A DNA stretch of 34,649 bases from an uncultured Gammaproteobacteria bacterium (GTDB lineage: Bacteria > Patescibacteriota > Patescibacteriia > 2-12-FULL-60-25), in the NCBI GenBank assembly GCA_964415965.1, contig CAYQCK010000003.1:131426-166074 (forward strand). Reading direction: 5' to 3'. Every line of letters starts with the position of its first letter. The stretch's first letter is position 1. The translations under genes were made by a program, and so were the position numbers. The notes below the pieces were generated by a model. The model was not told where the DNA came from. It saw only the letters and a program-made list of their open reading frames with translations, and made no database searches. Positions 16,727-32,643 of this stretch are shown piece by piece.

Positions 16727-16870
16727 CCCCACTTCGCAAGTGACCCCGGGGGTCTGGGGGTCCGCGCCAAGCGTGGTGGCAGGATAACTAACGTCGGCGA
16801 CACCGAGAGCGGCATCGCGGACCCCCAGGACTTTTGCTACTTTTGGTCACAAAAGTAGATAGGAGGGCTT
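16727..16870 (+). repeat. copy A of the conserved structured element (core only; lacks the 5' GGATTCCAGC...GCTGGAATGAC module)
   Basis: CACTTCGCAAGTGAC...GGGGGTCCGCG...GACACCGAGAGCGGCATCGCGGACCCCC...CTACTTTTGGTCACAAAAGTAGATAGGAGGGCTTT. Its 3' end overlaps the stop codon of the convergent HD gene. Confidence 0.85.
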
Positions 16871-18486: not shown

Positions 18487-18690
18487 ATGTCGACTCCCGA
18501 CACCCTGCGCGCCCTGTGCTTCGATGAAGCCGGAGCCGCGCGCCCCAAGAACGACTGCCGCGCCAGCATCATCAACCATCTCATCTTGGAGGAAGGTTTG
18601 GATATCGACGAAGCCGAGGACCTGGCCGAGCAGACGCTCCGCCAAGCCAACCTCTGGCCGGAGAATCCGACGGCACAACCGCTGCCGTAA
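18487..18690 (+). CDS. possible small acidic protein (67 aa)
   Basis: ORF with plausible composition, followed by a highly structured non-coding stretch. No strong RBS. Confidence 0.25.
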   Translation: MSTPDTLRALCFDEAGAARPKNDCRASIINHLILEEGLDIDEAEDLAEQTLRQANLWPENPTAQPLP

Positions 18691-19395: not shown

Positions 19396-20154
19396 CTACC
19401 GGTGCATCCGGAAGTATGCAGAAGCAGTGTTCTGGCGGTGGGGTTCGCCGTTGTTGCGCGGAACCCCGAACATCCGAGTCATGGTCCCGACTTCGATGCC
19501 CGGGATGCCAGGGGCGCCGGGGTTGGTGACGAGGGCGAAGTCGACCTGAACTTTGCCTACGCCACCGTTGTGGGGAAGGAAGACGTACCGGACGATCATG
19601 CCCGGCGGAACCAACGCTACGCGGTCGACGCGGCCGTTGCGGCGCGTGACGTCCACGTACACCAGCTTCTCCCCTTCGCAATCCAGCGGCTTGATGTGCC
19701 CGCTCGCCCTGACCTCGACCATGAAGGTCTTGTTCAGGCTGTTGTCCACCACGAGGGTGAGCGCGGGATCAGCTCCGCAGAAGGGGCCGGCGTACTCGGG
19801 GGAGATGATGACGTTCGCCGGAGGCACTGCCATCGGCGGCTGGCCCTGAGGCACGGCTGCCGTCGGCATGAGCGGGGGCTGGCCGGTCACCGGAGGAGCG
19901 GCCTGGGTCGGCACCGCTGCGGTCTGGGCCGGCACGCTAGTCGGCTTGGCCCGCGCTTCCCGACGGTCGCTCTCCATCTTCTCCAGGCAGGCCAGGTAGA
20001 CCTCCTGAGAGGGGCTCTTCTGCCGGTCGCAGGTATCGCTGGATGAGTCGTACGCGCCTCTCCAGTCGGCGCCGGTCTTGATGGTCGCTCCGCACGCGCT
20101 GGTGAGGATCGAGACGATGATGACGAACGCTACGTACACGAGAGAACTCTTCAT
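19396..20154 (-). CDS. secreted lipoprotein (252 aa), paralog family with shared Y-x-x-CLEK motif
   Basis: Lipobox ILTSAC, Pro/Ala/Gln-rich linker, beta-rich C-terminal domain. GGAGG RBS upstream of the ATG at 20154. Confidence 0.6.
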   Translation of the reverse strand: MKSSLVYVAFVIIVSILTSACGATIKTGADWRGAYDSSSDTCDRQKSPSQEVYLACLEKMESDRREARAKPTSVPAQTAAVPTQAAPPVTGQPPLMPTAAVPQGQPPMAVPPANVIISPEYAGPFCGADPALTLVVDNSLNKTFMVEVRASGHIKPLDCEGEKLVYVDVTRRNGRVDRVALVPPGMIVRYVFLPHNGGVGKVQVDFALVTNPGAPGIPGIEVGTMTRMFGVPRNNGEPHRQNTASAYFRMHR

Positions 20155-20300
20155 TGGATTCCTCCACATTGGCGACTTGGTCGCCGTCTAGTCGATGGTT
20201 TTGGCTCGGCCCCACCCTTGCGGACGGGGCCGTCACCGGTCAACGGTTCAGCTCCACATGGCGAACTCCGAAAGAATTTCGAGTAGGGCCACCATAGCCG

Positions 20301-20879
20301 CTACTTCCTCCCCGAGTTGCCGCTGGTGCAGCAAATCGGATCCTTGGGGTTCGCCCGGCAGATCGCGTCGTGCTGGGCCTTGGTCGCCCTGGCGAGGTCC
20401 GCGACGTCCTGGTCGCTCGCTCCGCCCGACGCTCCCGGCGTGACGTAGATGCGCGCGCCGCCCGAGCTGCGCTCCATGGCGACCGCGCCGTACGGCGTCG
20501 AGTCGGGGATGATGGCCGGAGCGCAGGCCGGGGAACCCGGCAAGCACGTCCTGACCATTCCCGGCGACCCGTATCCGTATCCGCCGTATCCGTATCCGCC
20601 GTAACCAGGCATCGCTCCCGGCATGCCCCCGCCGGACGTCTGTCCGCGGCAGTACATGTCGGCCTGCGAGCTGCCCATGGTCGGCGAGTTGCGCTTGATG
20701 CACTCGTCGAACTGGGCGCGGCTGTTGATGACCGTGTCGGTCGAGGTGTTGTACGGCCCGCGGGTCGTCGTCGTCCGGCTGTAGCCGTTCGGCGTGTTGA
20801 CCTCGGTGGTCGCGCTCACCGTCCTGCAGCCCATCGTGGCGAGAACCAATGCAACCAGCACCAATACGAGCTTGCTCAT
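20301..20879 (-). CDS. Cys-rich lipoprotein with Gly/Tyr repeats (192 aa)
   Basis: Lipobox LVLATMGC, a GYGGYGYGGYGYG tract, 10 Cys, GGAG RBS, driven by the TTGACAAGA-N-TATATT promoter. Confidence 0.6.
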   Translation of the reverse strand: MSKLVLVLVALVLATMGCRTVSATTEVNTPNGYSRTTTTRGPYNTSTDTVINSRAQFDECIKRNSPTMGSSQADMYCRGQTSGGGMPGAMPGYGGYGYGGYGYGSPGMVRTCLPGSPACAPAIIPDSTPYGAVAMERSSGGARIYVTPGASGGASDQDVADLARATKAQHDAICRANPKDPICCTSGNSGRK

Positions 20880-20973
20880 GTGATGATCTCCTTCGGGCTA
20901 TGCCCGATTTTCGGTTGTCGAAGCCGTCCCAGCTGAAGTTTCGCACTTGGCTACACCTTCAGTAGAACAAACA

Positions 20974-21002
20974 AATATAACACAAAAAGCCATTCTTGTC
21001 AA
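20974..21002 (-). promoter_or_regulatory. sigma70-like promoter (TTGACA-17-TATATT) for the 20879 gene
   Basis: - strand reads CTTGACAAGAATGGCTTTTTGTGTTATATTTGTTTGTTC. This is near-identical to the promoters at 24867-24895, 22008-22036 and 34465-34493. Confidence 0.6.
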
Positions 21003-21083
21003 GCCCCACCAGACAAAAAATATAGCTCAACAGAGCCCAATAATAGTGGCTTAACTAAGCCAATAAACCGAGAATATACGGCT

Positions 21084-21520: not shown

Positions 21521-21537
21521 TGCCGACAATATAGATA

Positions 21538-21570
21538 AAGCCGCGGAAACAAGTGTCTCCGCGGCTTTGC
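21538..21570. terminator. bidirectional intrinsic terminator
   Basis: AAAGCCGCGGAAACAAGTGTCTCCGCGGCTTT with a T-run on both strands. It ends the - gene 21590..21940 and any + transcript covering C-D. Confidence 0.7.
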
Positions 21571-21589: not shown

Positions 21590-21940
21590 TTAGTAGCCGT
21601 ACGGCCGGCCGGGTGAGGACCAGCGGTTGTAGCCCGGGGTGCCGTAGTTGCCGTAGCTCGGGTAGTAGCCTCCGGCCTGGTACACCGGCAGCTGTCCGGG
21701 ACGACCCGCGCGGATCCAGTAGCCGCACTCTTCGGCGGCGCCCGGATAGCCCGCGTTCTTCTCCAGACACAGCTGGTAGGCCGACTTCTCGGCCGTGTCT
21801 GAAGTGACCTCGGTCGAGAACAAACCAACATCAGATCTGCGTGCATGCGCCATTTCCGGCGTCGTATCACGCACCGTGGTCGTGTGGCCGCAGCCAGCGA
21901 GGGCGAACGCCAACATCATGGTAATGAGCAAAGGCTTCAT
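21590..21940 (-). CDS. small secreted lipoprotein (116 aa) with the AYQLCLEK motif
   Basis: Start trimmed to MKPLLITMMLAFALAGC (lipobox) with GGAGAG RBS. Tyr/Gly/Pro-rich C-terminus. Confidence 0.6.
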   Translation of the reverse strand: MKPLLITMMLAFALAGCGHTTTVRDTTPEMAHARRSDVGLFSTEVTSDTAEKSAYQLCLEKNAGYPGAAEECGYWIRAGRPGQLPVYQAGGYYPSYGNYGTPGYNRWSSPGRPYGY

Positions 21941-22007
21941 CTCAACTCTCCCAGACAGCCAGAGTGGCCGTCTTTTCTTGATGGTTTGAAGATTCGGGGA
22001 ACGTATA

Positions 22008-22036
22008 TGTATACCATTTTTCCGTGTTTTTGTCAA
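22008..22036 (-). promoter_or_regulatory. sigma70-like promoter (TTGACA-17-TATACA)
   Basis: - strand reads GGGTTGACAAAAACACGGAAAAATGGTATACAT. Confidence 0.55.
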
Positions 22037-22057
22037 CCCTCCAGGGTATTTTCCGGC

Positions 22058-22096
22058 AAAGAAAAACCCCCTCGCCTGCGAGTGCAGGGAGGGGGT
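22058..22096 (-). terminator. intrinsic terminator after the VirB6-like gene
   Basis: - strand reads CCCCCTCCCTGCACTCGCAGGCGAGGGGG followed by TTTTTCTTT. Confidence 0.7.
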
Positions 22097-22134
22097 TGAG
22101 AGCCGCGTTGCGCGGCCCAAGGAGCGGCCTGACG

Positions 22135-23823
22135 TCACTTGCAGACGTCAGGATGCCTGGCGCAGTACGCGTCCAGGCCGGGGTTGCCCGAGCAGTTGCC
22201 GTTAGGGCAGTTCCGGACCACGACCGGAGGGGTCGTCGAGGTGGGCGGGGGCGCCACGCTCTTGTCCGGGACCTTGACCAGCACTTCCTGGCTCAGCTCG
22301 GTCTCGCCCGAAGCGTAGACCGCAGCCACGCGGTAAGCGTAGGTCGTGCCCGCGACCACCGTCGCGTCGTCGTAGTGGGTGACGCCGTTGGCCAGCGCGT
22401 TGAACGCCGTCCAATTCGTCTCGCCCACTGCCCGGCGCTCGTAACGGTAGCCCTTGGCTGCCTTCGGGATCTCGGGGTAGGTCAGCCTGACCTTGCCGTC
22501 GACGATGTTCGCCTGGGGCGCGAACATCTTCGAGAGCGAAGTGCCTTCCTTCAGGTTGAAGGTGTCGGCCTTGCCCCACGAGAAGATCGTGATGCACAGG
22601 CTGCCGATGGCCAGGAACATCATGAGGATGAACGACGCGGCCAGCAGCTGGCGGGCGCGCCGCGGGGCTCCCGTGGCGTCCTCGTCCGGCCAGCACATCC
22701 AGCCGACGAACCCGGTGAACAGGGCGCCGCAGAGCGCCGCGTACCACGGGAACCCGACGAACTTCTTGTCGCCGATGCCGAGGACCCACTTGATGGCGCC
22801 GATGGCCACGTCCACGATGCCGCCCAGGAGCGCGCCGATCTGGATGACCAGAGCGTCGAACTTGACCTGCAGCGGAGGGAAGAAGACCACGAGCGCGAGG
22901 AGCACGAGGAGCGCGTACCCGGCGTACACCAGGGAGCGCGCCGCCCGCTGCCGCCAGCTGAGCGTGTCGATGCCGTTGTTCTCCGCGTTCTCGAAGGAGA
23001 GGTAGGAGAAGATCCCGGCCAGCGTCGTCAGTACGAGCACCGACGGGAAGGGCATGAGCACGCCGATGGCGAGGACCGGCAAGAGCGCCGAATTGATCCG
23101 CGCTTTGGCCCGCTTGATGGCCGGTTTGAACATCTCCTGGTCGGCCAGGTTGATGTCCACGTTCGCCAGGCCCCTGAGGCCGGCCGTGATGAGCGTCTTC
23201 GCGATGCTCACGATGGCGTTGCTCGAGCCTTCGGCGAAGTCCACGCCCAGCTTGGCCATGTGCGCCACCAGGTCCACGACCATGAACAGCACTTCGCGGG
23301 CCATCAGGATGTACACCACCCCGAGGACGGCCAGCATGCGCGCGTCCATGAGCGGAGCCAGGTTGACCGGATCGGCGACCACGTTCCCGACCGCCAGATG
23401 CGCGGCCAGGAAGAACCAGACGCCGAGCGAGAGCAGGCCGAGGAATGAAGCCGAAATCACGGTCATGACCGAGAAGTCGTCCAGCGGACGGAGTCCGTTC
23501 ACGACAATCCAGGCCGAGAAACCGCTGGCGATCAGCAGCCCGACGATCCACGCCGACTGCGGCACGGTCGTACCGAGCGCGAGGAGCATGGCGCCGAAGA
23601 CGCCGACGAACAGCACGCCGACCACGACCCAGCCGATCCGGCGGAACGCCGGAGCGATGAGCGTGTCGTACGCCAGTCCCGCCAGGTCGACGAGCGCCTG
23701 GCCGGTCGCGGCGAACATGTTGCCGATGGCCGTCAGGAGCGCGCCGCCGCCCAGGAACTGGACGACCGCCACGAAGCCGACGAGCACGACGATCGAAAGC
23801 AATACCACTACCATGAGCTGCAT
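22135..23823 (-). CDS. VirB6/TrbL-like polytopic membrane protein with C-terminal FN3-like domain and Cys-rich tail
   Basis: About 10 TM helices across 430 aa, then a soluble C-terminus (TYPEIPKAAKGYRYERRAVGETNWTAF...YAYRVAAVYASGETELS) and CPNGNCSGNPGLDAYCARHPDVCK. Start trimmed to the ATG at 23823. Confidence 0.45.
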   Translation of the reverse strand: MQLMVVVLLSIVVLVGFVAVVQFLGGGALLTAIGNMFAATGQALVDLAGLAYDTLIAPAFRRIGWVVVGVLFVGVFGAMLLALGTTVPQSAWIVGLLIASGFSAWIVVNGLRPLDDFSVMTVISASFLGLLSLGVWFFLAAHLAVGNVVADPVNLAPLMDARMLAVLGVVYILMAREVLFMVVDLVAHMAKLGVDFAEGSSNAIVSIAKTLITAGLRGLANVDINLADQEMFKPAIKRAKARINSALLPVLAIGVLMPFPSVLVLTTLAGIFSYLSFENAENNGIDTLSWRQRAARSLVYAGYALLVLLALVVFFPPLQVKFDALVIQIGALLGGIVDVAIGAIKWVLGIGDKKFVGFPWYAALCGALFTGFVGWMCWPDEDATGAPRRARQLLAASFILMMFLAIGSLCITIFSWGKADTFNLKEGTSLSKMFAPQANIVDGKVRLTYPEIPKAAKGYRYERRAVGETNWTAFNALANGVTHYDDATVVAGTTYAYRVAAVYASGETELSQEVLVKVPDKSVAPPPTSTTPPVVVRNCPNGNCSGNPGLDAYCARHPDVCK

Positions 23824-23881
23824 TTTCAATCTCCTTCTGTCCGGGCCCGATTCCGGGCCCGGACCGGTTGTCAGACGCTCG

Positions 23882-24769
23882 CTACCATTCCCGCCGAGCT
23901 TTCGCCCGACGGGCTGCGATCTTGGAGCGGACACCGTCGACCGCTCCCGTGAGGCTGTCCACTCCAGTGGCCATCTCCTTCAGGGCCGCATCAGGCTTGT
24001 CGACGAGCTCCTCAGCCTTCTTGCCGAAGGCGCCGAAGAACTTCTTCTTGGCCTTCTCGAGCGTGCCCATGATGCCTCCGGCTTCCGGCGGCTTGATGTC
24101 GCCGTAGGCCAGCTTGAGGTGGGCGATCCAGGTGTCCTTGTCGAGGTCGATGAGGGTGAGCATGAGGTTGAAAAGTTCCCACCTGTTGCCCACGATCTTT
24201 GCCCGATACGTCTCGAACGCCTTCTTGTCCTCTTCGGACAGGCTGGCGTGCTTGGCTTGGAACGCCCTCTGCCGCGCGACCTCGAGCGAGAGCAGCGCCG
24301 AGCTGAACGTCGCGCTCTCGAGCAGGAGACTCCGGGCCTTTTCCTTGGCCTCGGCCGTCGCCTTGCTCAGGTCCTGCTCCGTGATCTTGCCCTTGGTCCG
24401 CTGGGCATGTCCCAGCCCGTGGATGAAGCTATCGATCGCCTCGTCCAACAGGCTGATGTACTCCTCGGGGACGCCGAGCGACTTGAGGCCGGTGCGGACA
24501 AGCTTGGGGTTCTGGATGAGCGCCGCGGCTCCGGCTGTCACCAGGCCTGCGGCATGGGTGCCGATGAGGCTCTCGACCGCGTCGAGGCCGCGCGACATCC
24601 ACGGCTGGTTGGCCACTCGGCCGCCCAACCCGCCCGCCACGACCTGCACCAGGTTCGAGAAGAACCTGACGTAGAACCGCGGATCGGACGCCATATCCTT
24701 GGCTTCTTCCTTGCCCTTCTTGCCGCGCCTGCCGCCACCAGAGTCATCCCTGCCCGTATCTTCTGGCAT
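23882..24769 (-). CDS. hypothetical protein (295 aa), first gene of the VirB6-like operon
   Basis: GGAGAAGGA RBS upstream of the trimmed start. Helical, Lys/Ala/Glu-rich C-terminal half. Confidence 0.5.
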   Translation of the reverse strand: MPEDTGRDDSGGGRRGKKGKEEAKDMASDPRFYVRFFSNLVQVVAGGLGGRVANQPWMSRGLDAVESLIGTHAAGLVTAGAAALIQNPKLVRTGLKSLGVPEEYISLLDEAIDSFIHGLGHAQRTKGKITEQDLSKATAEAKEKARSLLLESATFSSALLSLEVARQRAFQAKHASLSEEDKKAFETYRAKIVGNRWELFNLMLTLIDLDKDTWIAHLKLAYGDIKPPEAGGIMGTLEKAKKKFFGAFGKKAEELVDKPDAALKEMATGVDSLTGAVDGVRSKIAARRAKARREW

Positions 24770-24866: not shown

Positions 24867-24895
24867 AATATAGCACAAAACCCCCTTTTTGTCAA
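24867..24895 (-). promoter_or_regulatory. sigma70-like promoter (TTGACA-17-TATATT)
   Basis: - strand reads CTCTTGACAAAAAGGGGGTTTTGTGCTATATTTGTTTGTTC. The first ~25 nt of the transcript are near-identical to the 20974 promoter transcript. Confidence 0.6.
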
Positions 24896-25469: not shown

Positions 25470-27071
25470 CTACAGCCTAACTTCAAAAGTCACGCCATCT
25501 TCAGTCTCCTTAAGTTTCAGAAACCGAGGATCCGATTCGATGAGCTTCAGGAATTGCCTATGGATTTCACGCTTGCTAATGAAAACGAATCTCGAGTCGA
25601 GCCGATCATGGATCAATTCCCAAGCTTGCTCCTTGGTCGTGCTCGTCATGCCCCAGGTGAGGTTCCTGACATCGTCCGACAAAGTCGAGGACGCGACGTA
25701 GAGGAAAGTCGGGTCCATGCCTGAGACATAACGCAATCGGTCATCGGCCGCGAACAGCATCGGGAACTCGTCCCAGCTCGAATGGAACACGCGGTCTCCC
25801 GGTTGCGCCAACTTCGCGACGGCTTCAAAGCTGCCGCGATAAGCTGTGTCCGGATAGTTCGCCGGGTGCAGGCTCCGCCAGATGCCTTGGACCTCGCGCC
25901 CGGCCAAACCAAGCGCCAAAACGCCCACAAGAATCAGCAAGGCCGATAGCCCGCGCTTCCCCAACACCCTGAGGCTATCCTTGGCCTCGGCCGCCAAACG
26001 GCGCGCGTCGACCATGCTCCAGATTGCGCCGCACCAGATGGCCACGGCCGGCGCCAGATATTCGGTCGTGCGTCGGCTCTTGAGGGTCAAGGCGAAAAAA
26101 GCCGCCACTAATAAGCCAGAAGACAGGCATAAAGCCGCCTTCTCGCGGTCCGCCGGACGGCGCGGCGCCAGCGCCAGCCCGGCCAGGCCCAGCAGCAAAT
26201 CGATGATCCAGGGCGCATACGCCGTGACCAAATGCGTGGCTTCAGGCGGCAGCCACTCGGTGCCCATGACAACCTTGCCCATGGGCGTGCCCAGGCCGAT
26301 GATGAAAACCTGCGTCCAGCTGAACAAGAAATTCTCCGGGAAATTCGGATGGACAAGCATCCCGAACAGTCCCCCGGCCAGGACCGCCGCGACCTCCTTC
26401 CACAGCCCGTGCTTCAAGGCCTGGACGAACCGCATCCCGCCCAAATCCCTGTCGGCGACCAAACGACCGAAGGCCAGGACCGTCGCCGCACCGGCCAGAT
26501 AGGGCCAACCGCCGTGCGACAACGCATAGGTCGCCGCGATGGCGAACGCCGCCCACGGCCGCCGTCGCCACACGGCCAGGATGCCGAGCAGGAACAACGC
26601 GATAGCCAAGGGCGAAGCCTTGCCCAACAGGATCCGCGTCACGAACGGCTGGGTCACGGCCAACACGGTCACCCAAATCCCCGGCCTCCAGACCCCGAAC
26701 GCGCGCAAAACGGCATACGCCGCCGCCAGGCAGGCCGCAGCCAAAGCCACGCTCGCGATGCGCAATCCCTGGAATGGGCCGAAAACCGCCGTGGCCGGCG
26801 CGACCAGGACATGGAACAGGAAATGCAGGTCCGCGTAATGCTGTCCGACGGACGTCAGATCAAGCCAGGGAAATGTATTCAACGGCCCATGCGCCCAAAG
26901 CAACGCCGACGTTTTGGCGTGGTAAAAAGCATCCGGGTCATTGAACCCGTCCCAAGGCATCAGGACCGAGAAATACGCCAGGCCGAACAAAAAAACCCCG
27001 ACAGCCCTCTTCAAACCATCGACTCTCGACTCACGAATACATGCCTTGATCACCCCCGAACTATAACACAA
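25470..27071 (-). CDS. polytopic membrane protein, probable GT-C-type glycosyltransferase (ArnT/PMT-like) with C-terminal soluble domain
   Basis: About 12 TM helices over 400 aa plus a ~130 aa C-terminal domain, last gene of the galU-pilin operon. Family call is tentative. Confidence 0.4.
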   Translation of the reverse strand: MCYSSGVIKACIRESRVDGLKRAVGVFLFGLAYFSVLMPWDGFNDPDAFYHAKTSALLWAHGPLNTFPWLDLTSVGQHYADLHFLFHVLVAPATAVFGPFQGLRIASVALAAACLAAAYAVLRAFGVWRPGIWVTVLAVTQPFVTRILLGKASPLAIALFLLGILAVWRRRPWAAFAIAATYALSHGGWPYLAGAATVLAFGRLVADRDLGGMRFVQALKHGLWKEVAAVLAGGLFGMLVHPNFPENFLFSWTQVFIIGLGTPMGKVVMGTEWLPPEATHLVTAYAPWIIDLLLGLAGLALAPRRPADREKAALCLSSGLLVAAFFALTLKSRRTTEYLAPAVAIWCGAIWSMVDARRLAAEAKDSLRVLGKRGLSALLILVGVLALGLAGREVQGIWRSLHPANYPDTAYRGSFEAVAKLAQPGDRVFHSSWDEFPMLFAADDRLRYVSGMDPTFLYVASSTLSDDVRNLTWGMTSTTKEQAWELIHDRLDSRFVFISKREIHRQFLKLIESDPRFLKLKETEDGVTFEVRL

Positions 27072-27119: not shown

Positions 27120-27503
27120 CTATCCCTGTCCGGTCGCGTTGATGAGCGAACCCATCACGAAACTCGAGATGGCGTAAGCCGCGACGATGATTATCAAGCC
27201 GATGATGGCCTGGGTAAGCATGTCTTTGGCCTTCTTGACCTTGCTGTCGTCGCCCTGCGCCGTCATCCAGAGGAAACCGGCGTAAAGCGTCAGGACGAGG
27301 AAGACGATGCCCAGGAAGCCGAGGAAAATATTGATCAGGTTACCGATCATCTCGGTCAGCCCTCCTTCAGTTTTAATCCCGGCCGTCTCACCGACTTTTC
27401 CGACCATCTCCTGCCCTTTCTGGAACGGATTCTCAGCCAGGACCTGCAGCGGCGCCATCAGCGCCAAGCCGGCTCCGGCGATGTATGTCTTTAGGTTCTT
27501 CAT
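27120..27503 (-). CDS. VirB2/TrbC-like (T4SS-pilin-like) small membrane protein, paralog F
   Basis: Signal peptide, short ectodomain, TM1 ending LYAGFLWMTAQGDDSKVKKAKDM, then TM2 LTQAIIGLIIIVAAYAISSFV. Confidence 0.6.
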   Translation of the reverse strand: MKNLKTYIAGAGLALMAPLQVLAENPFQKGQEMVGKVGETAGIKTEGGLTEMIGNLINIFLGFLGIVFLVLTLYAGFLWMTAQGDDSKVKKAKDMLTQAIIGLIIIVAAYAISSFVMGSLINATGQG

Positions 27504-27538
27504 AACGATATTAGCTTCGTGGCTCACGTTTATGCTTA

Positions 27539-27961
27539 TTAGCCTCCTTCTCCGCCTCCGCCGCCGACATCGCCCGTGCCTCCGCTTGTCGCGTTGCCGA
27601 GCGAGCCGATGACGAAATCCGCGATCGCATAGGCCGCGACGATGATGACCAAGCCGATGACGGCCTGGGTTATCATGTCCTTGGCTTTCTTGACCTTGGA
27701 CTCGTCTCCCTGCGCCGTCATCCAGAGGAAACCGGCATAGATCAGGATGGCCAACAGGACCAACCCGAGCAGCCCCAGGGCTTGGCCGATCAAGGAACCG
27801 ACGATCCGCGTCAGATCCGTGGGCCCTTGGTCGTACCCGGACGGTCTGGCCGCAGCGCTCAAGCCTGTCCGCATCGAATCCGCCGGGGCGGCTACGGCTG
27901 GCAAAGCCAAAACCGCGGCCAAACCTACGGCCAAACTCGTGCAAGCGATGAATTTCCTCAT
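27539..27961 (-). CDS. VirB2/TrbC-like small membrane protein, paralog E (Gly-rich tail)
   Basis: IYAGFLWMTAQGDESKVKKAKDMITQAVIGLVIIVAAYAIADFV; start at MRKFIAC (an alternative ATG lies at 27970). Confidence 0.6.
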   Translation of the reverse strand: MRKFIACTSLAVGLAAVLALPAVAAPADSMRTGLSAAARPSGYDQGPTDLTRIVGSLIGQALGLLGLVLLAILIYAGFLWMTAQGDESKVKKAKDMITQAVIGLVIIVAAYAIADFVIGSLGNATSGGTGDVGGGGGEGG

Positions 27962-27996
27962 GTGATGCATAACGATGGTTACAAGCGGACCGCGGG

Positions 27997-28395
27997 CTAG
28001 GCGTCCTGCGTCGCGGTGATCAAACGTGAAATGACGAAGCTGGTGATCGCCCATGCCGACAAGATGATGGCCAAACCGATAATGCCTGAAACGATAAGTT
28101 TCTTGGCTTCTCCGGTCTTTTCATCGTTCCCTCCGGCGATCATCCATTTGAAACCGCCGAGCAGCACGATGACCACGGCGACGATGCCGAGGAAACCGAG
28201 CGCGACGTTGATGATGCGGGCTGCGGTCTGGCGGACATCGCCTGAACCGAGCTTGATCGTCGACTGGATGGCCCCTACGCCCAGATCGTTCTGGTTGAGG
28301 TCATCGGCGGCGAACACCACGGCCGGGGCGGCCAAAACGGCGGCCAGACCGAGGGTCGTGGCGAAGGCTGCAGCTTTCTTAAGACGTTGCGTCAT
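27997..28395 (-). CDS. VirB2/TrbC-like small membrane protein, paralog D
   Basis: Signal peptide, then LLGGFKWMIAGGNDEKTGEAKKLIVSGIIGLAIILSAWAITSFV. Confidence 0.55.
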   Translation of the reverse strand: MTQRLKKAAAFATTLGLAAVLAAPAVVFAADDLNQNDLGVGAIQSTIKLGSGDVRQTAARIINVALGFLGIVAVVIVLLGGFKWMIAGGNDEKTGEAKKLIVSGIIGLAIILSAWAITSFVISRLITATQDA

Positions 28396-28492
28396 GTCAT
28401 GTGTCACCTCCTTTCGGTTTGGGATACACGCTTTACGTGTCGGTGGGAAGTTTAGCAGATGCGCCGTCCGGAGTCGAATCCCCAAGCGGCCT

Positions 28493-28954
28493 TCAGGGCA
28501 CGGCTTGGCCGGTCGTTTCCGGGTTTCCGGCCTGGCTCGTCGGGGCGTTGTTCGGGGGCGTCGCGCCGGACAGCGTGCTCCCGAGTCTCGTGATGATGTT
28601 GAACACCAAGACGTAAGCCAACGACACGATCGCCAGGCCGATGACCGCGTTCTTGAGCGTCGTGGTCGCCTTCTTCACCCGGTCGCTTTCGCCTGACGCC
28701 GTCATGTACATGACTCCGCCCCAGATGAACATGGCCAAAAACAGCGAGCCGACCAAGGGCAGTACCCAACTGATGATGCGGGCCACGAGTTCGGGCACGC
28801 TCTTGCCGCCCATCGGGTCCTGCAGGCCGTAACTCTGGAAACCGGCCGGCGCCGGGCTCGGTTGCGACGCCGCCGAGACGGGCAGGGTGATGGCCAGGAC
28901 GACCAGGCAAGCGACAACGGCCGAAACGGTCAAAAGGGTTTGTTTGTTTTTCAT
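28493..28954 (-). CDS. VirB2/TrbC-like small membrane protein, paralog C
   Basis: FIWGGVMYMTASGESDRVKKATTTLKNAVIGLAIVSLAYVLVF, with a Pro/Thr-rich C-terminal tail. Confidence 0.55.
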   Translation of the reverse strand: MKNKQTLLTVSAVVACLVVLAITLPVSAASQPSPAPAGFQSYGLQDPMGGKSVPELVARIISWVLPLVGSLFLAMFIWGGVMYMTASGESDRVKKATTTLKNAVIGLAIVSLAYVLVFNIITRLGSTLSGATPPNNAPTSQAGNPETTGQAVP

Positions 28955-28961
28955 AGCGGTG

Positions 28962-29657
28962 TCACGAGCCTTGCGGCACGGCGTAGCCCGTCGTCTCCGG
29001 CGGTGGCTTCGGGACATCTGAAGTCAAAGCCTTGAAGAAGAAGTCCACCAGGACATAGGCGAACATGATGAGCGCCAAACCGATGATGGCGTACTTCATC
29101 GTGTCCGTCGCCTGCTTCACCCGGTCGCTCGAACCGGCCGTCATGTACATGATGCCGGCGTAGATGAACACGATCAGGGCCAAGGCCCCGACCATGCCGA
29201 TGAACGCGGCCACGAACCGGCCGATAAGGGCGTTCAACGTCACGCAATCGGCCTTGCCCGTCGGACACAGCGGATTCGCCAACGTCATCGGCGAACCGGC
29301 CGATACGCCCGCCGAGGCCTGCGTGGCCGAAGCGGCGCGCGCCAGACAGGTCGGATCATTCGGGTTCTTCTTGCACAGGTCTTCGATAAGGGGCTCGAGG
29401 GCGGGACCAACCGCTTTCTGCGCCTGTTTGTTCTTGCAGCATGCCGCATTTACGGTCTTGACGCACGTTCCGAGCTTATCCTGGTTCATCTCGCAATCGT
29501 CGCTCACCAGGTTGCAGCTCCCGCCCTGCTTCGTGCAATCCTGGGGAGTCATGGCCGCGGCCGACTCCGCTTGGACAAAAAACAGGCTAAACGCGACCAT
29601 AAGACCGGTAATGGCCGGCAGGATTTTCTTGTATGTTTGCTTGGCCATATGGTTCAT
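28962..29657 (-). CDS. VirB2/TrbC-like membrane protein, paralog B, with ~150 aa Cys-rich ectodomain
   Basis: 12 Cys in the ectodomain, then IYAGIMYMTAGSSDRVKQATDTMKYAIIGLALIMFAYVLVDFF. ATGA overlap with paralog A. Confidence 0.55.
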   Translation of the reverse strand: MNHMAKQTYKKILPAITGLMVAFSLFFVQAESAAAMTPQDCTKQGGSCNLVSDDCEMNQDKLGTCVKTVNAACCKNKQAQKAVGPALEPLIEDLCKKNPNDPTCLARAASATQASAGVSAGSPMTLANPLCPTGKADCVTLNALIGRFVAAFIGMVGALALIVFIYAGIMYMTAGSSDRVKQATDTMKYAIIGLALIMFAYVLVDFFFKALTSDVPKPPPETTGYAVPQGS

Positions 29658-30043
29658 TGGCTAATCACTATCCCGGCCACGTAGCGGACGATGGTCCAGG
29701 CGCTCATCACGATGAGCATGCCGATGGCCCCGCCTTTCATGGCCTGCGTCCCCTTCTGCACCCAGTCGGCCTTGCCGAACGACAGCAGATACCGGGCTCC
29801 GCCGTAGACGAAGGTAGCGAAGAACAGGGCGGCCGAAATCTCCATCAGCATGTTGCCGAACGCCGCCGCCGTCCTGACGATGTCATCCAGGCTGCAGTCC
29901 CCGGAGGCCATGCATTTTTTCTGCACACCTGTCTTATCCATTTCGGCCGTCAGCGACTGCGCCCAAGCCGCGGTCGGCAAGAGCCACGCGCCGAGCGTGG
30001 CGGCCAATGCGGCCAAAGGACGTTTTAGGTTCGGCATAAACAT
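29654..30043 (-). CDS. VirB2/TrbC-like small membrane protein, paralog A
   Basis: Signal peptide, then FVYGGARYLLSFGKADWVQKGTQAMKGGAIGMLIVMSAWTIV. Its ATG overlaps the stop of the upstream SBP gene (TGATG). Confidence 0.5.
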   Translation of the reverse strand: MFMPNLKRPLAALAATLGAWLLPTAAWAQSLTAEMDKTGVQKKCMASGDCSLDDIVRTAAAFGNMLMEISAALFFATFVYGGARYLLSFGKADWVQKGTQAMKGGAIGMLIVMSAWTIVRYVAGIVISQ

Positions 30044-31494
30044 CAGAAATTGTAGGGTATGGTCTGCGAAATCTTGCTGGCCGCGTTGCTGAAGACCTGC
30101 GAGAGTTTCTCCGGATCCGTGACCCGGACGTCATCGATCAGGGTGACGAGCGCGTCCTCCATGGTCTTCGGGTCGTTCCCTTTATACCAGGAGCGCGCCG
30201 TCAGGACCTGCGACGAGAACACCCCGATCTGCTCGTTCTCGAGCTGGCCGGGCAATTGGGACTTCAGGGCCGCCGGCCGCAGCGCCACATCCAGGTATTT
30301 CTTGTTCTCATCCGGCTTGCGCATGAAATTCAGCAGGTTCCATGACAGGTCCACGGATTTGGTCTTCTTGGACACGGTCCAGGCCCAATAGTTGGCGTAG
30401 TTCACGACCGGATTGCCCGTTATCTGCGGCATCTTGGCCATGGCCAGGTTCAGCTTGGGCGCGCGGGCGCGGATGACCGGCAGATGGTAGCTGTAGCCGA
30501 AAAAGAACGCGACCTTGCCCTGGATGAAGGCGTCGAGCGAATTCGGCTGCTGGTCGTTCCAGGTATAGACGTCTTTCCCGGGATTGGCGAAGTCGGTGTA
30601 GAAAGTCAGGGCTTGGTACGCCGGAGGCGTGTCGCGTTGGCCGGACAGGGCGGCCGGTATCTGGTTGAAGGTCGGCGAACCGTCGGCGGCGGCCATCTCG
30701 GCGCCGTTCTGCATCATGAGCGCCGCCACGATGTCCGGCGAGCGTTCGACGTTCTTGCCCGTGCCCAACGCGGCCCCAGCCTGCAGGATGGCTCCGGTAT
30801 CGTCGGTTTTGACCAGCTTCTTGACCGCGGTCTGGAAATCGTCCCAGTTCTCCGGGATGTTCGCGATGCCCGCCGCGTTCAGCAAGTCCTTGTTGACGTA
30901 CATGGCCAGCGTATCCACCGACATCGGCACAGCCACCACGCGCTGCTGCCAATCCTTCTTTTCCTTGTCGGTCGACACATTGACGGTCCGGATGAAGTCG
31001 TTCGCCACCACATCCGGGTAATCGCTCTTGAATTGGCGGATGGAGACCGTCGGTTCGGTCTGGAGCGTCCAGACCAGCTCTTTCTTGAGCGTGCCCTGGA
31101 CGGACTGCGACGCCGTTTTGGTCTGGAGCGGCATGGGCAGGAGCTTGCTCATGTATTTGCCGACCCAGGTGTTGTGGATCATGAAGATGTCCGGTCCGCG
31201 GTCCTCGGCCAGCGCGTTCAGGAGCTCGTTCTCGTATTCCTCCAGGCGGAAACGCCGGTAGTTCAACGTCGCGTTGGGGTGGAGCTTGCGGTAATCGCTC
31301 AATATCGCCTGATACGCGTCGTTGTCGTCGATCACGCCCCAGATGTTGATCTCCGCCTTCTTGGAAGCGGCCTGGGTCGCGGCATCCGGCCCCTTGGTGC
31401 AGCCGGCGGCCAAAGTCGCGGTCGCCACCAAAGCCCACATGAGCTTCAGGGCTAATGAACGGGTTTTCTTGGAGTTTTGCATACCTGACGCCAT
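30043..31494 (-). CDS. lipoprotein extracellular solute-binding protein (family-1 SBP, sugar type)
   Basis: Lipobox LAAGC and MalE-like SBP features (NIWGVIDD..., ...FFGYSYH...). Co-transcribed between galU and the pilin-like genes. Confidence 0.65.
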   Translation of the reverse strand: MASGMQNSKKTRSLALKLMWALVATATLAAGCTKGPDAATQAASKKAEINIWGVIDDNDAYQAILSDYRKLHPNATLNYRRFRLEEYENELLNALAEDRGPDIFMIHNTWVGKYMSKLLPMPLQTKTASQSVQGTLKKELVWTLQTEPTVSIRQFKSDYPDVVANDFIRTVNVSTDKEKKDWQQRVVAVPMSVDTLAMYVNKDLLNAAGIANIPENWDDFQTAVKKLVKTDDTGAILQAGAALGTGKNVERSPDIVAALMMQNGAEMAAADGSPTFNQIPAALSGQRDTPPAYQALTFYTDFANPGKDVYTWNDQQPNSLDAFIQGKVAFFFGYSYHLPVIRARAPKLNLAMAKMPQITGNPVVNYANYWAWTVSKKTKSVDLSWNLLNFMRKPDENKKYLDVALRPAALKSQLPGQLENEQIGVFSSQVLTARSWYKGNDPKTMEDALVTLIDDVRVTDPEKLSQVFSNAASKISQTIPYNF

Positions 31495-32428: not shown

Positions 32429-32643
32429 ATGGATTCCGGGGGATTTTGCCCGGCCCCAAACCGGGGCTGGAATGACGGGTTGGGTTATCGGACAAAAAAG
32501 CCCCACTTCGCAAGTGACAAGGGGGGGGTCCGGGGGGCCGCGTGGCGTGGCGCACAGAATCTCTAACGTCAGCGACACCGAGAGCGCATAGCGGACCCCC
32601 GGAGCTTTTGCTACTTTTGGCTACAAAAGTAGATAGAAGGTTT
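32429..32643 (+). repeat. copy G of the conserved structured element (most divergent copy)
   Basis: ATGGATTCCGGGGG...CCGGGGCTGGAATGAC...CACTTCGCAAGTGAC...GACACCGAGAGCGCATAGCGGACCCCC...CTACTTTTGGCTACAAAAGTAGATAGAAGGTTT. Confidence 0.8.

Follow-up and report, generated by a model that had tools for sequence, protein, structure and literature searches.

The DNA analysed here (the window) is a 34,649-nucleotide stretch of contig CAYQCK010000003.1, from an assembly of the Patescibacteriota (GCA_964415965.1). On its minus strand it carries a cluster of genes in which the gene t562 encodes a membrane protein of about ten helices with a fibronectin type III (FN3) tail. t562 is preceded by h295, a gene for a protein with no export signal. 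The pair lies between the polytopic protein gene m533, six VirB2-like pilin genes and a solute-binding lipoprotein gene on one side, and three genes for probable lipoproteins (l116, l192 and l257) on the other (Table 1). An earlier interpretation, made from the letters of the window without database searches (the sequence-only reading), had taken t562 for a VirB6/TrbL-like subunit of a type IV secretion system (T4SS). Comparisons reported below do not support that membership, and t562 is tentatively interpreted as a scaffold of a lineage-specific envelope complex.

Table 1. Features of the t562 cluster; positions are counted from the first nucleotide of the window
Feature	Position	Strand	Description
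Family-1 solute-binding lipoprotein gene	30043..31494	minus	
Six VirB2-like pilin genes	27120..30043	minus	PF18895 (T4SS_pilin)
m533	25470..27071	minus	533-aa polytopic protein; C-terminal soluble domain; DPDxxYH after the first helix
Promoter-like site	24867..24895	minus	TTGACA-N17-TATATT, TG before the -10 element; upstream of h295; 11/12 consensus matches
h295	23882..24769	minus	295 aa; charged disordered N-terminus; no signal peptide or transmembrane helix
t562	22135-23823	minus	562 aa; start ATG at 23823; stop codon ends at 22135
t562 membrane domain, residues 1-416	22576..23823	minus	~10 hydrophobic helices; predicted N-out/C-out
t562 FN3 domain, residues ~437-520	22264..22515	minus	predicted extracytoplasmic
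t562 Pro/Ser/Thr-rich linker, residues 521-538	22210..22263	minus	sequence and length differ among homologues; predicted local distance difference test (pLDDT) <50 in both models
t562 cysteine motif C539-x4-C544-x9-C554-x6-C561 and stop codon	22135..22209	minus	
l116	21590..21940	minus	116-aa probable lipoprotein; lipobox LAGC; Gly/Tyr-rich C-terminus
Terminator-like hairpin after l116	21537..21568	minus	predicted end of transcription unit
Second promoter copy	20974..21002	minus	TTGACA-N17-TATATT; upstream of l192
l192	20301..20879	minus	192-aa probable lipoprotein; l116 paralogue; GYGGYGYG tract; C-terminal Cys loop DAICRANPKDPICC
l257	19396..20169	minus	257-aa probable lipoprotein; kept downstream in every longer related locus
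Terminator-like hairpin after l257	19378-19346	minus	

The reading frame described earlier for t562 was found in place. Its product has 562 residues rather than the 563 given before, a figure that counts the preceding lysine codon. All homologues begin with MQLM, and the 99% identical protein P0001 is also 562 residues long. A strong GC bias at the third codon position was seen in the frames of both h295 and t562 (22135-24769).

About ten hydrophobic segments were identified by hydropathy in residues 1-416, and the AlphaFold2 models placed helices at matching positions, in good agreement with the number of transmembrane helices first proposed. The loop formed by residues 191-244 is large, basic and predicted to be cytoplasmic, and it holds the most conserved motifs of the family, LGVDxAEGSSN and ADQExFxPA. 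When lysine and arginine were summed over the loops of 15 aligned homologues, loops 1/3/5/7/9 contained 220 and loops 2/4/6/8 contained 56. Taken together with the ten helices, this count would place the N-terminus and the FN3 tail outside and loop 191-244 inside. Based on the positive-inside rule, the tail is therefore probably extracytoplasmic (N-out/C-out), a location that the sequence-only reading had also assigned to it. No internal 5+5 repeat was found in the membrane domain, and the loop after helix 1 (residues 24-61, cytoplasmic by the same count) displayed no invariant acidic residue.

The tail spans residues 417-562 and is thus longer (146 residues) than the ~130 residues originally estimated. 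It consists of a beta-rich domain, a Pro/Ser/Thr linker and the C-terminus CPNGNCSGNPGLDAYCARHPDVCK, which had been read correctly. The FN3-like pattern noted in it was borne out. In the PDB, the t562 family profile matched FN3 domains of titin (E = 5.9e-6), and an exhaustive search of 1.84 billion representatives matched thousands of FN3-repeat proteins through profile positions ~437-535. In a fold search with the full model, which is of moderate quality, the matches listed were nearly all FN3 domains, together with a few generic helical bundles. The FN3 identity of the tail is confirmed by these profile and structure searches; the Pfam fn3 model did not reach E ≤ 1 on t562. Fold and sequence profile are shared with the FN3 domains of titin, bacterial glycoside hydrolases and surface proteins. 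In contrast to these, the domain is present once in t562, between the C-terminal end of a ten-helix membrane domain, to which it is fused, and a short cysteine loop.

The end of the tail had been described as resembling a cysteine knot, and this part of the description was abandoned: a cystine knot comprises six cysteines in three disulfides, one of them threaded, while t562 has four cysteines (539, 544, 554 and 561), of which only the last pair is near-invariant among 15 homologues. Both members of the first pair are missing together in three distant homologues, and such paired gain and loss fits two independent disulfides. Model confidence was low in the cysteine region. Similar short cysteine-closed C-terminal loops were observed in l192 (20301-20360, minus strand; DAICRANPKDPICC) and t562 (22138-22209, minus strand; DAYCARHPDVCK). 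Most orthologues of l192 and of t562 retain such a loop, and the likeness is closest in the related loci L001 and L002. A shared motif of this kind in the second pilin was also considered, and it was rejected as it is not conserved in the orthologues.

To evaluate the assignment to VirB6/TrbL, membrane domains were excised from 12 family members, which share 23-100% identity with the query, and scanned one by one at E ≤ 10. None of the 12 matched PF04610, the profile that had been suggested for this check, or any other T4SS model. The same PF04610 model matched TrwI of R388 at 4.9e-50 and PrgH of the Gram-positive pCF10 at 1e-6, showing that it covers the known breadth of the VirB6/TrbL family. 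The full t562 protein reached no Pfam or NCBIfam family at E ≤ 1, and t562 and h295 gave nothing beyond weak FN3-type PHROG matches in Pfam, NCBIfam and PHROGs. At lax thresholds, the 12 membrane domains and nine h295 homologues yielded scattered single matches only in Pfam and NCBIfam. Sequence and profile searches of the PDB with t562, its membrane domain, h295 and m533 returned FN3 matches only, and no VirB6 was found with the profiles of t562 and its membrane domain. The profiles of t562, m533 and h295 were additionally aligned by hhalign with T4SS proteins of R388 and pCF10 (VirB2, B3, B5, B6, B8, PrgD-L and Tn916 Orf15). All probabilities were <1%, a result of little weight because the pilin profile also failed against TrwL. 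As the sequence-only reading had required for its own survival, the membrane domain matched no unrelated transporter family in Pfam, NCBIfam or the PDB profiles.

The gene neighbourhood gave a similar picture. Genes for VirB4, VirD4, VirB3 or VirB8 were detected neither in the window nor within ±10 kb in L001, L002 and L012. Two traits of VirB6 proteins are present in t562, namely a polytopic membrane domain (at least 4-6 hydrophobic helices are expected and ~10 were found, above the typical number) and the company of VirB2-type pilins, whose six genes are located 3.3 kb upstream of the start codon of t562. Overall, the sequence evidence does not support membership of t562 in VirB6/TrbL.

The t562 family is small, with about a dozen clusters. 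Only 8 close homologues were found among 5.8 billion proteins, and the exhaustive search added about nine more distant full-length cluster representatives. A word-index search with the membrane-domain profile contributed one further protein. Among GTDB species representatives, an alignment scan gave a single match, in a metagenome-assembled genome of Candidatus Uhrbacteria, and a single-protein scan gave nothing. Uhrbacteria are placed in the class ABY1 (PMC12102498, tables). To judge by these searches, t562 is a small orphan polytopic family restricted to ultrasmall Candidatus Uhrbacteria-like Patescibacteria (class ABY1).

The h295-t562 pair was present in every related locus with a readable upstream flank (L001-L005, L008, L009, L011, L012 and L013), and lipoprotein genes, usually three, were found downstream of or adjacent to t562. 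The common order is YchF, NTP transferase (not called in L001), solute-binding protein, six pilins, m533, h295, t562 and three lipoprotein genes. The full cluster with the solute-binding protein, the six pilins and m533 is kept in the window, L001, L002, L003 and L012/L013. In L012/L013 t562 is only 28% identical and the gene order is still preserved; the nearby pilin-like array pointed out by the sequence-only reading thus recurs with t562 down to this level of identity. Loss of the pilin array in distant relatives was considered and rejected, since the contigs in question end inside or before m533 and L012/L013 carry the full cluster. Over the distance from the window to L012, t562, h295 and the lipoproteins retained ~27-35% identity, in contrast to 66% for the solute-binding protein and 48% for m533.

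Five of the six tandem pilin genes matched PF18895 with E-values from 1e-11 to 1.4e-9, and one of them also matched TrbC at 0.0026. The sixth (27120-27503) was assigned by likeness: it shows a signal peptide and the two-helix pattern, and it is 77% identical to the sixth gene of L001, which is annotated with PF18895. When the pilins were compared with those of L001 (4064-6976) and L012 (4254-7323), the best match was the gene of the same rank, except for pilin 5, which matched pilin 6 in L012. Pilin 4 was 82-93% identical across lineages and the others 38-77%. The same-rank matches indicate that the array is a fixed set of six paralogues and not a variable repertoire, and they speak for six fixed roles and against antigenic variation. 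The end of the solute-binding gene and the start of the first pilin gene (29654-30043) have base 30043 in common, and this one-base stop/start overlap suggests translational coupling. The scanned open reading frames of the window include no gene for an ABC (ATP-binding cassette) permease or ATPase.

Arrays of this type have been described before. In a survey of Patescibacteria, arrays of 2-11 pilins were found in 383 assemblies, and pilin genes were often located away from virB4 (PMC12102498). The closest parallel is the T4SS pilin set of Southlakia epibionticum, also a Patescibacterium, which has six tandem, divergent pilin genes on the chromosome as in the present locus (PMC10633639, PMC12857230, PMC12102498). 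The flanks differ: VirB4, VirB6 and VirB8 are replaced here by a solute-binding lipoprotein and orphan membrane proteins. Thus, six-member VirB2-like arrays in Patescibacteria are already known. What is new is the conserved company of the array (the solute-binding protein, two orphan polytopic proteins, h295 and three lipoproteins) and the positional orthology of the six pilins.

The 295-aa gene that had been placed before t562 is present and conserved in synteny. No family or PDB match and no recognisable signalling domain were found for h295. Its homologues share 24-43% identity and keep their position, and the most distant pair was joined by hhalign at 97.9%, to a 302-aa gene of L004. The h295 family is fast-evolving, with 280-350 residues and no export signal. 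The promoter shared by two sites, which the sequence-only reading had also noted, was found upstream of h295 and of l192, in copies that sit within a 40-nt repeat (88% identical, second copy at 20964-21003). The two-gene operon postulated behind it turned out to be too short. Downstream of the first promoter lie h295, t562 and l116, and the first terminator-like hairpin follows l116; these three genes form a predicted transcription unit inside the larger conserved cluster, and the unit conserved among relatives comprises h295, t562 and three lipoprotein genes. The second promoter copy would drive l192 and l257, with a predicted end at the hairpin after l257.

The gap between t562 and l116 (21941-22134, 194 nt) contains no predicted terminator, and relatives keep gaps of 127-255 nt at this place. 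A lone sub-threshold Rfam match in the gap lies on the opposite strand and is probably due to chance; Rfam scans of the intergenic regions gave no credible family. In both l116 and l192, the lipobox is directly followed by Ser/Thr-rich segments, and low-complexity tracts rich in Gly and Tyr occur (GYGGYGYGGYGYG; YYPSYGNYGTPGYN...PGRPYGY). The type of tract is conserved across relatives.

The homologues of m533 have 520-550 residues, are 48-72% identical across lineages and are encoded directly upstream of the h295-t562 pair, with the DPDxxYH motif invariant. No significant Pfam, NCBIfam or PDB match was obtained for m533, the best being an archaeal STT3 at E = 0.16. Its general shape and the DPD motif lead to the suspicion of a GT-C glycosyltransferase. 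A paralogue of m533, 24% identical, was observed downstream in L004 (5630-7219). In L005, L008 and L009, a gene of glycosyltransferase family 2 (GT2) lies directly upstream of h295, and in L008 and L009 it stands between m533 (1-975 and 3-884, respectively) and h295. Its best matches are the polyprenyl-phosphate glycosyltransferases AglJ and PpgS and a dolichyl-phosphate hexose transferase.

A tentative proposal for t562 starts from its architecture, its FN3 fold, a conserved association with h295 and the lipoproteins, and a likewise conserved linkage to six pilins. It would be a membrane scaffold, exposed at the surface, of an envelope complex that is lineage-specific and possibly related to the pilins; a probability of roughly 0.4 is given to this interpretation. 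The protein would be embedded in the membrane as the scaffold of the complex. Its basic cytoplasmic loop, the best conserved part, would contact h295, and on the outside the projecting FN3 and cysteine-loop tail would contact the lipoproteins encoded with it, the pilin-like proteins or a partner cell. Like VirB6, the protein might also provide the pilins with a platform, though it is no recognisable VirB6/TrbL homologue and there is no ATPase in the cluster. Several observations weigh against the scaffold. The link between t562 and its putative partners comes from synteny, and gene-dense small genomes may hold their gene order partly by inertia. In L011 the h295-t562 pair lies beside l192-like and l257-like genes with no pilin in the 10 kb upstream, and in L004, L005, L008 and L009 the sequence upstream of m533 is not visible, so that these loci offer no view of the pilin linkage. 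The AlphaFold2 model of the membrane domain is of moderate confidence (pLDDT 66, predicted template modelling score 0.49). Finally, a scaffold is the default interpretation for a membrane protein with no catalytic signature, and a transport or enzymatic role may apply instead.

Of the atypical secretion or pilus apparatus suggested by the sequence-only reading, with its remaining parts outside the window or absent, the pilin linkage is supported; no other T4SS gene was found in the window or within ±10 kb in relatives. Two ways of extending this idea were weighed. In one, t562 is a very divergent extended VirB6 and a platform for the six pilins, with VirB4 and the rest of the T4SS encoded at other places in the genome. 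The extended VirB6 proteins carry a C-terminal hydrophilic extension, and t562 is similarly polytopic with a hydrophilic part outside the membrane (PMC12857230). It is conserved beside a six-member VirB2-like array, and S. epibionticum likewise has six essential VirB2-like pilins, within its T4SS locus (PMC12857230, PMC10633639). Moreover, the pilins are away from virB4 in ~40% of pilin-bearing assemblies (1135 of 1948 have them near virB4), and VirB6 is scarce or escapes detection in some Patescibacteria classes, which the authors attribute to divergence (PMC12102498). Nevertheless, most of the 480 Patescibacteria VirB6 homologues were recovered with the standard MPF_T VirB6 profile (PMC12102498), whereas the PF04610 signal is lacking in all 12 t562-family members with both controls detected, NCBIfam is empty and the PDB profile searches contain no VirB6. 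The ten helices are tightly packed and exceed the 4-6 of a typical VirB6 (PMC12857230), VirB4, VirD4, VirB3 and VirB8 are missing from the 34.6 kb and from the flanks of relatives, and the most faithful gene partners of t562 are lipoproteins and an orphan protein with no export signal, not the pilins. A divergent VirB6 is considered improbable. In the other extension, the cluster (solute-binding lipoprotein, six pilins, m533, t562, h295 and three Gly/Tyr-rich lipoproteins, with no local ATPase) would be an undescribed surface appendage or host-contact apparatus of ABY1 Patescibacteria, in which t562 would stand in for VirB6 without being homologous to it and would nucleate or anchor a pilin structure. 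This proposal is regarded as decidedly doubtful.

Two further explanations involve no secretion system. Three-part surface glycosylation systems such as GtrABC and CsbB/GtcA/YfhO combine a GT2 enzyme that makes polyprenyl-phosphate sugars with a flippase and a GT-C transferase, and type IV pilins are known with adjacent glycosyltransferase genes (TfpO, TfpW). By analogy, the pilins and the Ser/Thr-rich lipoproteins could be modified by a pathway of surface glycosylation or envelope-polymer synthesis, in which t562 would serve as a transporter, a flippase or a membrane glycosyltransferase alongside m533, as a putative GT-C enzyme, and a polyprenyl-phosphate sugar synthase. The likeness resides in the GT2 gene of the three distant relatives, in the genes for sugar activation and polysaccharides (sugar-1-phosphate nucleotidyltransferase, Wzy_C and Wzx-like) that border the cluster in several lineages, and in the GT-C-like shape of m533 (many helices, a C-terminal soluble domain and, after helix 1, an acidic DPD motif). 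However, m533 has no significant GT-C family or structure match, t562 matches no Wzx, MurJ, GtrA, Wzy or GT-C model and lacks a transporter-type internal repeat, and the window's own cluster has no GT2 gene. No invariant acidic residue was seen in the predicted outside loops of t562, and its conserved residues lie in a predicted cytoplasmic loop. Such a pathway is considered rather improbable. Alternatively, t562 and h295 could be a self-contained surface receptor, adhesin or signalling pair, with the FN3 domain binding a ligand outside and h295 responding inside; there would be no tie to the pilins, and the neighbourhood would reflect conserved order only. The pair stands with no nearby pilins in L011, FN3 domains are common binding modules, and t562, h295 and the lipoproteins diverge faster (~27-35%) than the pilins, the solute-binding protein and m533 (38-82%), as is typical of surface proteins under diversifying pressure. 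Such a pair is difficult to reconcile with a 13-gene order that is intact at 28% t562 identity, with ten membrane helices, which far exceed the needs of an anchor, and with the lack of a recognisable signalling domain in h295, and a receptor pair is accordingly judged unlikely.

VirB2-like pilin arrays are essential in the sole genetically studied Patescibacterium, and the locus is a sensible starting point for asking which structure such arrays form. At the present locus, a six-pilin array is conserved gene for gene across deep divergence, with orphan membrane proteins and lipoproteins in place of the T4SS ATPases. Should t562 and its partners handle or anchor the pilins, the epibiont-host interface would gain new components and, with them, concrete targets for structure prediction and cryo-electron tomography. 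Otherwise, a tempting but unsupported VirB6 label is removed, and a small orphan family is defined with a clear domain layout and topology.

The window also encodes housekeeping and envelope proteins, namely PolX-like, EamA, Nramp, RuvB, SpoIID, Wzx-like flippase, Wzy_C, HD, DUF4180, NTP transferase and YchF proteins. A prophage origin of the cluster was rejected, as it is chromosomal, located among housekeeping genes and conserved.

An intergenic repeat was observed in seven copies, all on the minus strand. Five could be aligned (~25458-25221, 25220-25011, 21522-21306, 21305-21081 and 19333-19095), and two were core matches (16837-16858 and 32611-32632). The five aligned copies have 210-240 nt and are 81% identical, and all are intergenic, in gene orientation and just downstream of minus-strand genes. 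These copies form a hairpin of 9 bp (CTACTTTTG...CAAAAGTAG) together with a long GC-rich stem, with five predicted pairs showing two-sided compensating changes. It had no Rfam match and was not found in the related loci L001-L007. It may be a genome-specific element similar to repetitive extragenic palindromes or miniature inverted-repeat transposable elements (REP/MITE-like), or a structured RNA.

On the plus strand, a small open reading frame (18493-18657) is ~51-56% identical to proteins of 76-81 residues encoded at the same relative position in L001, L002 and L004. A gene of similar size occupies this relative position in L012/L013.

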